A stretch of DNA of 64,000 nucleotides from Pseudomonadota bacterium. Its GTDB lineage: Bacteria > Pseudomonadota > Gammaproteobacteria > Pseudomonadales > Pseudohongiellaceae. The notes beneath the pieces are model-generated. The model worked only from the letters and a program-made list of their open reading frames with translations, was not told the origin of the DNA and made no database searches. Within the stretch, counting starts at the first letter, position 1, and each line of letters begins with the position of its first letter. Both the position numbers and the translations under genes were made by a program. Location of the stretch: contig JAZKES010000036.1 of NCBI GenBank assembly GCA_040386995.1, forward strand, positions 18,809-82,808, read 5' to 3'. Positions 6,425 to 8,827 of the stretch are shown here, piece by piece.

Positions 6425-7715
6425 TATTTTGCAATGGGGACTGATATTAAGTATTGCAGCCCCGCTCACATGTTCCCTGATCATCGGTTTATCGATCCTT
6501 GTCCGCCGTGAATGGCTCTCTGAAAACGCAATTTACAAGCTGTGTAACACTGGGCTTTTGTTGGCATTTTCGGGAAGCCTGATCGTGTTGTTTTCGCACG
6601 GTTTCAACAATACTGCGATCGAAGTGGATGCTGGTCACTGGATCAGTATCGGGGATTACGAAATTCCAGCCTTGCTCTACGTTGATAGCCTTGCGCTGGC
6701 GTTTTCCCTACTGGGTTCTGCGTTGACTTTACTCGTTGCGCGTTTCTCGCAAACGTATTTGCATAAAGAAGCGGGCTTTGCGCGCTTTTTTCTGTTGTTG
6801 GGCGTATTTGCAACTGGCACCCAGCTCATCGCGTTTGCTGGCGCACTTGACCTGTTTTTTGCGGGCTGGGAAGCGATCGGTATTTGTTCTGCACTCTTCA
6901 TCGGCTACTTCTACGAACGCGAAGAACCCGTGCGTTCTGCAATCCGCGCATTTACCACTTACCGAATTTGCGATGCAGGTTTTCTGGTTGCTATCGTGAG
7001 CATTCATGAGCTGCTCGGATCCACCAGCATTTCAGGCTTGATGGCGGCCGAAAATCTCGGCGGAGTAACTGTCACCCTGATTGCAGTCATGCTAATGATC
7101 GCAGCGTTTGGTAAATCCGCGCAGCTGCCATTTTCGTCCTGGCTGCCGCGTGCGATGGAAGGGCCTACACCGTCGAGTGCGTTGTTCTATGGCTCGGTTT
7201 CAATACATGTCGGCCTTTTTCTGCTGTTGCGTATCTCGCCCATTCTCGAAGCGGCCCCGGTTGCACAGGCACTCGGTATAGTCGTGGGACTTTCAACCGC
7301 ATTTTACGCGGCAGCCATTGCGCGCACTCACACGGATGCCAAAGGCGCTTTGGCGCATGCCACACTTGCGCAAACTGGTTTGATACTCGCAGAAATTTCC
7401 CTGGGTTTTACGACGTTTGCACTTATACATCTCGTTTGCCATGCGCTGTTGCGCGTGTGGCAATATCTACGTGCTCCCAACACTATGGCGGATGCCCATG
7501 AATTTGGCCATGAACCGCATCACGCACCGAGCCTGCTCGCAAAAATATTCCCACTGACGTCCAACTGGTTGTACGCGCAGGCACTGCATCGCTTCCGGCT
7601 GGACGACCGCATGGACAGTGCAGTGGCTCCTTTCTTATGGTTGGCGGAAAGCCTGGCGCGCTGGGACGAACAATTACGCCGTAGCTTAAGCCGGCGCCAG
7701 GATAATAATTCATGA
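6417..7715 (+). CDS. dabB: NuoL/MrpA-like proton-conducting membrane subunit (DabB-like)
   Basis: 432 aa. [29 protein letters not shown] is the canonical antiporter-like (Proton_antipo_M) motif, with Lys at 7113-7115. A later segment reads AHATLAQTG. It overlaps the dabA stop by 8 nt (ATGCCTGA). Confidence 0.8.
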   Translation: [432 protein letters not shown]

Positions 7716-8827
7716 CTGGACACACCGGTTTTATTCTTTCGTTCGTTGCTTTCGCGGCTGTATTGCTCGGCGCTCCATTACTTGCCACAAACACGCGTGA
7801 GCGTTCGGCGTGGATCTCCGCTGTCTGTGTCCTGGGCATCCTGACCTTTGCACTGATTACCAGCAGCGGCGTGTTCGCATATCTGGCACTGGCACTTGTT
7901 ACCGCGATGCACGCTGCGTCCGCATGGCACAGAGCACCTACTGGAGCGCTTTATCTGGTTGCGGCTTCAGTGACGCTAATTGCCGCCGCAGCCGCCATTG
8001 CATTCGACTCGGATAACCTGGCATTCGGACTTTCGTGCGTGGCACTGGCGTTGCGCGCAGGTCTTGCACCGTTTCATGCCGGCGTGGCAGAGATGTGTAT
8101 GAAACAACGTGAGCTGCAGCTACAGCAAAGCAGCTCGCTACTGATCCTGGTCCTCGCGCATCTTTATTACATCGATCATTTGCCAATTGCCTATGAAATG
8201 GCGCCCTTCCTCGTGATCTGGGGTGCAGTGCTGACCTTGTTGTATGCACTGACTGCACTTGCGCAGCGTGAACTCGGCGGCCTGCTGCGCTCTTCCACTC
8301 TCATGCATGCGGGTATGTTGTATGCGGCCGTTGGTGCCGGTGCACGCGGCCACTACGGCGCAGCGCTACTCGTAACCGTTACACTCGTGTTCGCGCTGGG
8401 TGGGCTGTCCTTGACCATTTCGGCGCTGGAAGCACGCCTTGGCAAAATCTCTCTGCTGGGTCCTGCAGTGGGTCGCGCACGTGCATTTCCGCGTCTCGCA
8501 GCGGCCTTTGCTTTTTTTGGTGCTGCAGGAGTTGGCATGCCGGGTACCGCAGGTTTTATTGCTGATGACGTGTTGTTGCATGCGCTGTGGGAGGAAAGTC
8601 CTGCCGGTGCAGTGATCATTATTTTTGGCAGTGCGATTCTGGCTGTCGCAACACTCAGCGTACTGGCCAAAACTTTCTTCGGTCCCGCATTACGCGTCCA
8701 TACACCAGATCTGCTGATGCAGGAACGCAGCGTTGTTGTTGCGCTCGTCCTGCTTCTCCTTGGGCTTGGCTTGGTCCCTCAGTTACTCGTAGGTGTAGCC
8801 GAACTCGTGCTCGGCAATACAATCTAG
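7712..8827 (+). CDS. Second antiporter-like (NuoM/NuoN/MrpD-like) membrane subunit, degenerate
   Basis: A 371-aa polytopic protein. LRAGLAPFHAGVAEM aligns by eye with the K..G..PFH.W.P.. motif, SSTLMHAGML with the AYSS..H.G segment, and MPGTAGFIADDV with the TM12 lPgt.GF motif. There is a 4-nt ATGA overlap with the preceding gene. Confidence 0.6.
   Translation: MTGHTGFILSFVAFAAVLLGAPLLATNTRERSAWISAVCVLGILTFALITSSGVFAYLALALVTAMHAASAWHRAPTGALYLVAASVTLIAAAAAIAFDSDNLAFGLSCVALALRAGLAPFHAGVAEMCMKQRELQLQQSSSLLILVLAHLYYIDHLPIAYEMAPFLVIWGAVLTLLYALTALAQRELGGLLRSSTLMHAGMLYAAVGAGARGHYGAALLVTVTLVFALGGLSLTISALEARLGKISLLGPAVGRARAFPRLAAAFAFFGAAGVGMPGTAGFIADDVLLHALWEESPAGAVIIIFGSAILAVATLSVLAKTFFGPALRVHTPDLLMQERSVVVALVLLLLGLGLVPQLLVGVAELVLGNTI

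Follow-up and report, generated by a model that had tools for sequence, protein, structure and literature searches.

A NuoM-like third subunit with a partly retained set of channel residues in a DAB-type operon of a gammaproteobacterium

Introduction

CO2-capturing DAB complexes, named from 'DABs accumulate bicarbonate', occur widely and are of interest as targets in the engineering of carbon-concentrating mechanisms. A 64,000-nucleotide stretch of a genome of the gammaproteobacterial family Pseudohongiellaceae (assembly GCA_040386995.1, contig JAZKES010000036.1, positions 18,809 to 82,808; the window hereafter) carries a DAB-type operon in which dabA and dabB are followed by a gene for a further membrane protein, the third subunit, which resembles the antiporter-like subunits of complex I and has lost several of their proton-channel residues. 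The locus poses the question of whether such a protein is a scaffold left over from a pump or still has a part in the path of protons. Judged from alignments of 118 full-length relatives, its erosion is partial: the hydrophilic axis has disappeared from the N-terminal half and is strictly kept in the C-terminal half, around transmembrane helix (TM) 12, in a class of operons whose DabB and DabA have changed in matching ways.

How proton flow is coupled to carbonic anhydrase activity in DABs is contested between two cryo-electron microscopy (cryo-EM) preprints of 2026 (bioRxiv 10.64898/2026.05.01.722082; 10.64898/2026.03.13.711513). The cryo-EM structure of DAB1 from T. albus is a heterotrimer of DabA, DabB and DabC, in which DabC superposes on the helices of NuoM beside NuoL; its proton-transfer positions are hydrophobic and it holds no water chain, yet it is essential, a role that was described as 'structural or allosteric' (bioRxiv 10.64898/2026.05.01.722082). 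In DAB2, DabB2 has Ile151 at the position of the TM5 Glu, and putting the Glu back halves growth; Glu444 in the membrane finger of DabA2 stands for K399/D400 of NuoL, forms a periplasmic half-channel with TM12/13 of DabB2 and is essential (bioRxiv 10.64898/2026.03.13.711513). Earlier still, the COGNAT paper of 2017 listed 'clade C' ybcC operons that combine COG0659 (SulP), COG3002 (YbcC/DabA), a NuoL homologue and COG1008 (NuoM), and speculated that more membrane subunits would mean more ions moved (PMC5700660).

A preliminary description of the third gene in the window knew of no earlier account of a degenerate antiporter module in DAB systems, a statement put out of date by DabC (bioRxiv 10.64898/2026.05.01.722082) and by the clade C neighbourhood (PMC5700660). 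A degenerate NuoM-like DAB subunit is already published, and the gain here is incremental. The half-retained channel, together with the matching changes in DabB and DabA, nevertheless offers a concrete and testable handle on the disputed proton path of DABs.

Results and discussion

A complete NuoM-type module encoded directly after dabB

Four genes follow one another on the plus strand of the window:

1954-3516, plus strand: sulP, a SulP-family anion transporter with a STAS domain; first gene of the four-gene module, ending one base before dabA
3518-6424, plus strand: dabA, DabA of 968 residues (PF10070, 780 bits) with the residues of a beta-carbonic-anhydrase-like zinc site
6417-7715, plus strand: dabB, a short DabB of 432 residues with TM1-TM11 and a non-hydrophobic tail of about 85 residues; matches to PF00662 and PF00361
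7712-8827, plus strand: third membrane subunit of the DAB-type operon, 371 residues and 12 helices, NuoM-like and DabC-related according to its open reading frame (ORF), PF00361 and NuoM matches, AlphaFold2 model, Foldseek and hhalign

A PF10070 DabA bearing the zinc-site Cys/Asp/Arg/His/Cys beside a PF00361 DabB places the system among the DAB/DAC/MpsAB inorganic-carbon complexes. The ATG of the third gene (7712-7714) overlaps the TGA of dabB (7713-7715) in an ATGA at 7712-7715, and an AGGA lies at 7699-7702, 10 nucleotides 5' of the start. The arrangement was followed through 65 related loci, two on long contigs and 63 from metagenomes, each count being restricted to loci with enough DNA: dabB adjoins the third gene in 37/37, dabA is present in 25/25 and sulP in 24/24, and the order sulP-dabA-dabB-third gene is constant. 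The translational coupling to dabB that had been proposed is upheld by the ATGA overlap. Relatives are labelled Gammaproteobacteria, Pseudomonadota and Gemmatimonadota/Gemmatirosa, and clustering at 50% identity leaves a few dozen representatives, after which scores drop to ordinary NuoM-like proteins. The neighbourhood is exactly that of clade C in the COGNAT paper, with ybcC 5' of the nuoL homologue and with SulP and a NuoM-like gene; that account, however, preceded the recognition of DabA as a carbonic anhydrase, and residue erosion, truncation of DabB and the relation to DabC were not described in it (PMC5700660).

The third protein matches PF00361 (NuoL/M/N, MrpA/D) with 31.8 bits against a cut-off of 21.5, residues 9-308 covering model positions 6-292, and the same match is precomputed for 118 of 120 relatives among those listed. 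With the NuoM model TIGR01972 of NCBIfam it reaches 62.2 bits (residues 96-364, model 201-476), short of the family cut-off of 263.8 bits, and no nuo genes lie beside it; it does not belong to NuoM proper. A sequence search of the PDB matched it to Escherichia coli NuoM (3rko_M) at 1.3e-12, and a 40-sequence family profile matched NuoM at 2.4e-21. The AlphaFold2 model, built on the family alignment, has a predicted local distance difference test score of 94.4 and a predicted template modelling score (TM-score) of 0.92, and contains 12 helices, two of them discontinuous, with breaks at 117-122 (GLAPFH) and 274-279 (VGMPGT). Its top Foldseek matches are NuoM/ND4 chains, with query-normalised TM-scores of 0.81-0.87. 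About 110 N-terminal residues of NuoM have no counterpart. Sequence and model agree in pointing to a genuine antiporter-like module of the NuoM type, apparently derived from NuoM minus its first two or three helices, and the gene is real and under selection, with 118 full-length relatives of about 370 residues that have many invariant residues in common.

The fold landmarks of NuoM/N/MrpD that had been recognised by eye are therefore borne out by the family, NuoM, AlphaFold2 and Foldseek matches. The motifs quoted for them are present, LRAGLAPFHAGVAEM at residues 114-128, SSTLMHAGML at 194-203 and MPGTAGFIADDV at 276-287, as is the partner motif at DabB residues 232-252; the first begins at 8051 as had been stated and ends at 8095, not at 8086. 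A simple splitting of DabB into two genes, dabB and the third gene, was considered and rejected: the product of the third gene is a second module, complete in itself, that aligns with NuoM TM7-TM14 and has four extra helices, and its profile has no match to the C-terminal part of DabB2. Neither the protein nor the family profile, used as a query against PDB sequences, brought up a DabC chain; the only DAB structure in the set searched was DAB2 (9rd0).

Channel residues are lost in one half and kept in the other

The elements that bear on proton transfer and docking are the following:

7712-8002, plus strand: four N-terminal helices (residues 2-97), poorly conserved and with no conserved acid, from secondary structure and a scan of the 118 relatives
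8012-8104, plus strand: broken helix equivalent to TM7 (residues 101-116 and 123-131, break GLAPFH), with R115 and H122
8108-8170, plus strand: TM8 equivalent (residues 133-153), with L146 and H150
8273-8344, plus strand: TM10 equivalent (residues 188-211), with the invariant H199
8429-8497, plus strand: predicted cytoplasmic TM11-TM12 loop, with E240, R242, G254, R255 and P260-R-L; sidedness from NuoM topology
8489-8596, plus strand: broken helix equivalent to TM12 (residues 260-273 and 280-295, break VGMPGT), with D285, D286, H290, W293 and E295
8705-8728, plus strand: predicted cytoplasmic TM13-TM14 loop, P-D-L...E-R (D333, E338, R339)

Residues were mapped by aligning NuoL, NuoM and NuoN of E. 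coli MG1655 to the hidden Markov model (HMM) of the family, and conservation was counted over the 118 full-length relatives. NuoM E144 on TM5 has no counterpart, no acid reaching 50% anywhere in residues 1-100. The TM7 lysine of NuoM, K234, corresponds to R115, which is Arg in 112/118 relatives with Lys absent from the five commonest residues; K265 on TM8 corresponds to L146 (Leu in 102/118), with an alignment gap just after it; and H348 on TM11 corresponds to L225, at a position that is hydrophobic or Thr in the relatives. Around TM7, P-F-H stands opposite P-L-H, AGVAEM replaces WLPDAH and there is no GPTP, so that the by-eye alignment behind the preliminary description, in which the canonical Lys had become Arg, W-L-P had become A-G-V and the GPTP kink had disappeared, was correct.

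Other positions have held. H122, opposite NuoM H241 on TM7, is kept in 113/118 relatives, H150, four residues past L146 on TM8, in 117/118, and D155 in 107/118. H199, opposite H322 on TM10, is invariant (118/118), as is D285, which corresponds to NuoM E407 on TM12, both lying at P+8 after the PGT kink. D286, H290 and W293 are likewise each found in 118/118, and E295 in 111/118. Loss is borne out for the Glu of TM5, the Lys of TM7 and the His of TM11, and apparently for the Lys of TM8, where H150 lies close by; it is not borne out for the TM12 acid, D285, which sits within MPGTAGFIADDV itself. NuoM/ND4 (Nqo13) is the best match in sequence and fold, with TM7-TM14 equivalents in register and with the PGT kink, the TM12 carboxylate and the TM10 His retained; unlike NuoM, the protein has Arg for K234, Leu at K265 and a hydrophobic residue at H348, lacks the TM5 Glu, and is always encoded with dabA and dabB, outside nuo operons.

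The polar residues that remain cluster in the TM8, TM10 and TM12b half, which would face the periplasm if NuoM topology applies. On the predicted cytoplasmic side, the TM11-TM12 loop is a candidate docking surface for DabA, and at the D-L position of the TM13-TM14 loop E. coli NuoM has Gly (LPGMSLRE). The third subunit is probably not just structural filler.

A longer and less degenerate relative of DabC

A genome scan for the DabA1 motif NNPYESALDCGACGG yielded 120 DAB1 loci, from which 34 sequences went into an alignment of DabC; in H. neapolitanus the order is dabB1, dabC (250 residues; Hneap_0908), dabA1 (1052 residues). Comparison of the window family alignment with the DabC alignment by hhalign gave a probability of 97.9% and an E value of 5e-13 over 313 columns, and the window protein reaches 45.9 bits with the HMM of DabC, so that the two are homologous. 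A phmmer search with the window protein against the ORFs of the 120 DAB1 loci gave no match at 1e-3, the homology being visible at profile level only. Residues common to the window family and DabC lie in the loops (R242/R135, G254/G146, P260/P152 and D333/D222).

Both proteins are NuoM-derived membrane subunits encoded directly after dabB in an operon with dabA, both have broken helices at TM7 and TM12 as well as R...G...P-R/K-L and D-L motifs in their cytoplasmic loops, and neither retains the TM5 Glu or the TM7 Lys. They differ in length, the short DabC corresponding to NuoM TM7-TM14 with about 250 residues in proteobacteria, whereas the 371-residue window protein has four extra N-terminal helices. 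They differ also in the channel: the TM7 Lys position of DabC is hydrophobic and 32/34 DabC sequences have no acid on TM12b, whereas the window protein keeps the TM7 Arg, the TM8 and TM10 His and the TM12 Asp-Asp with its His. The hydrophobic channel of T. albus DabC is therefore not found here, R115, H150, H199, D285, D286 and H290 all being conserved in the window family. Gene order separates the two as well (B-C-A in DAB1, sulP-A-B-C in the window class), as do the partners, a DabB of about 560 residues and a DabA with NNPYESALDCGACGG in DAB1 against a DabB of 432 residues and a DabA with NNPHESAHDCGACGG here. We conclude from these comparisons that the window protein is, in a broad sense, a DabC-type subunit, longer and much less degenerate, and that its operon represents a distinct, uncharacterised class of DAB.

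The window protein matches PF00361, and so do 8 of the 34 DabC-family members, the long forms of Nitrospira and Leptospirillum, at odds with the general statement that no Pfam family covers DabC. These long ORFs, from DAB1 loci of the two genera (L027, L033, L036, L048, L050, L094, L096 and L102), have 360-460 residues with unrefined starts, an N-terminal extension and a PLPPFH motif. NuoM, the window protein, long DabC and the 250-residue DabC line up as successive grades in the decay of an antiporter module, a series that helps to explain how pumps can turn into scaffolds.

Two further DAB1 loci were unusual. In Ca. Pampinifervens (Aquificota; L012, positions 2985-5252) a 755-residue ORF matches both DabB and DabC and looks like a fusion. 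In Nitrosomonas eutropha (L023) two matches to the DabA1 motif, 3.8 kb apart on one 8-kb stretch, suggest tandem dabA genes; no DabB or DabC ORF was detected within the 8 kb.

Matching changes in DabB and DabA

The preliminary description held that the upstream partner retains the signature residues, and DabB does keep E152, K233, H338 and H342, together with R183 and D186. This apparently functional partner is itself unusual. In all 35 DabB sequences of the class only about 85-97 residues follow TM11, where DAB1 has about 220 and NuoL 271; the tail of the window DabB has a maximum Kyte-Doolittle value of 0.77 and no hydrophobic segment, and TM12-15 are therefore missing. Also in 35/35, the position of NuoL H254 on TM8 is Tyr (Y258 in the window) with a His six residues on (H264), the TM11 lysine position, NuoL K342, is Arg (R346), and the position of NuoL E144 is Glu (E152). 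The DabB of DAB1 (n = 52) never has Glu at the E144 position (H, Q, F, N or Y instead) and keeps H254 and K342. The TM8 His (H229/H260) is essential in characterised DABs.

DabA of the class conserves FCMDER and H...DCGAC. It has an invariant NNPHESAHDCGACGG in place of the DabA1 motif NNPYESALDCGACGG and an invariant RPEYGH in place of RPEWGL, which puts His where other DabA have a Leu said to disfavour bicarbonate binding. The sequence of its membrane finger, SRTLxGGAGLSxLLGP, contains no conserved Glu. With 394 bits for DabA1 and 247 bits for DabA2, the window DabA lies closer to the former, in keeping with a common origin of the three-subunit classes. The system resembles DAB2 (DabA2/DabB2; PDB 9rd0) in coupling a DabA with a beta-carbonic-anhydrase-like zinc site to a NuoL-like DabB with a TM1-11 core. 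DAB2, in contrast, has no third subunit and a DabB2 of 15 TMs, whereas in the window class DabB TM12-15 and the finger Glu are missing, the TM5 Glu of DabB is retained and a NuoM-like subunit with the TM12 Asp-Asp is present. Among the DAB types compared, it alone combines that Asp pair with a DabB TM5 Glu, and it is the only one without the alternative parts of a periplasmic half-channel.

Two putative single-chain fusions of the short DabB with the third subunit, P0140 (768 residues) and P0152 (674 residues), have DabB parts that align with the window DabB from end to end at 52-53% identity. The third-subunit part begins at profile position 43 in P0140 and 114 in P0152, and the loss of the first helices fits the topology required after a cytoplasmic C-terminus of DabB. 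Such fusions would support, indirectly, a physical association of DabB and the third subunit.

The SulP of the window matches BicA and DauA weakly, and may be a bicarbonate transporter that works with the DAB. In a related locus from a Gemmatimonadota genome (L002) a beta-carbonic anhydrase gene (PF00484) lies directly upstream of sulP.

Proton entry, gate or scaffold

Neighbouring antiporter-like subunits of complex I meet such that the Lys/Glu on TM12 of one lies beside the TM5 Glu/TM7 Lys of the other. On this pattern the third protein would be the 'C' subunit of a three-subunit DAB, a vectorial carbonic anhydrase encoded by an operon sulP-dabA-dabB-dabC', seated beside DabB as NuoM is beside NuoL and, by analogy, as DabC is in T. 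albus DAB1, with its conserved cytoplasmic loops aiding the docking of DabA. Unlike DabC, it would still have a part in handling protons: its TM12 Asp pair would face the retained TM5 Glu/Arg ion pair of DabB, and the subunit could either provide a periplasm-side entry that feeds protons laterally into DabB or act as an electrostatic gate of that ion pair, with the path leading onward via DabB TM7/8/11 to DabA. This would compensate for the absent DabB TM12-15 and DabA finger Glu, the parts of the periplasmic half-channel in DAB2. We favour proton entry or gating because both sides of the interface are kept, the alternative half-channel parts are absent and the polar residues cluster towards the periplasm. 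That the subunit occupies the NuoM position, helps to hold DabA and supplies or gates proton entry to DabB E152 is nonetheless a proposal to which we give roughly even chances. The sequences and the model establish identity, fold, homology to DabC, synteny and patterns of conservation; the place in the complex, the side of the membrane on which the residues lie and any part in proton transfer are deduced from these. A class that has dispensed with two half-channel elements of DAB2 and keeps the residues of a complex-I-style interface amounts to an experiment of nature that can tell which parts of the proton path are indispensable.

Several observations weigh against this proposal. The NuoM-like position is carried over by homology with DabC, and the pattern across classes, drawn from three of them, amounts to few independent events. 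An Arg on TM7 is unable to pass protons on, the centres of TM8 and TM11 are hydrophobic, and no unbroken lateral path through the subunit can be made out. Buried Asp and His might be invariant for the sake of folding or packing. NuoM gives the window family a higher score (79.5 bits) than any DabC does (at most 37.6 bits), leaving both orthology with DabC and an independent recruitment of NuoM in play. The authors of the T. albus study, finally, hold DabC to be structural or allosteric and dispute a proton role of the DabA finger (bioRxiv 10.64898/2026.05.01.722082).

A serious rival, quite possible though short of probable, is a pseudo-subunit with a structural or allosteric role and nothing more, a scaffold for DabB and DabA whose polar residues serve packing. 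The lack of a TM5 Glu, the Arg in place of the TM7 Lys and the hydrophobic residues at the TM8 Lys and TM11 His positions all suit it, as do the loop motifs common to DabC and the precedent of the homologous DabC, essential despite hydrophobic channel positions and no water chain (bioRxiv 10.64898/2026.05.01.722082). It leaves unaccounted for that all 118 relatives have D285, D286, H290 and H199, at canonical channel positions where DabC has lost them, that the partner TM5 Glu is kept by the DabB of this class alone, and that the class lacks DabB TM12-15 and the finger Glu, both of which belong to the periplasmic half-channel in DAB2. The 'structural pseudo-subunit' of the preliminary description is accordingly one reading of the locus and, given the invariant TM12 acid, H199 and H290, not the one best supported.

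The third subunit might instead lie on the distal side and replace the missing C-terminal helices of DabB, its Asp pair standing for NuoL K399/D400 or for the DAB2 finger Glu in the second half-channel of DabB. All 35 DabB relatives do stop past TM11, the class has no finger Glu, its DD pair is invariant, and the putative fusions attach the third subunit to the C-terminus of DabB; but the retained DabB TM5 Glu points to the proximal interface, and a complete 12-helix module far exceeds a substitute for four helices, which makes this arrangement improbable. Least credible of all, to a degree that we would be surprised to see it confirmed, is an independent and fully active cation-translocating module moving its own ion. 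The PF00361 fold with both broken helices and the 2017 suggestion about operons with several membrane subunits (PMC5700660) speak for it, but the TM5 Glu, TM7 Lys and TM11 His are absent, as apparently is the TM8 Lys, and there is therefore no complete hydrophilic axis and no cytoplasm-side half-channel.

Returning to proton entry through the third subunit, a more specific version can be drawn, possible but doubtful in its detail. It would be a third DAB architecture, in which protons enter from the periplasm along a TM12b ladder (E295, H290 and D285/D286, with H199 and H150), pass laterally to DabB E152/K233 and run along DabB TM8/TM11 to DabA, a two-module relay of the complex I type working in reverse to drive CO2 hydration. 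The subunit would then be an evolutionary intermediate between a working NuoM and an inert DabC.

Remainder of the window

No RuBisCO or carboxysome genes occur in the window, and Rfam and promoter/terminator scans gave nothing informative. Upstream of sulP, an intergenic imperfect tandem repeat with a 9/18-nucleotide period comprises about 3.4 copies of ATCACGTTGATGACTCTC at 1240-1310. On the same strand as the operon and 60 nucleotides 3' of it, a gene at 8888-9349 encodes a CBS-pair protein of 153 residues, a counterpart of which was not seen next to the related loci. The remaining genes of the window are housekeeping genes: purL, guaA/B, xseA, ppk, der, hscA and secD.

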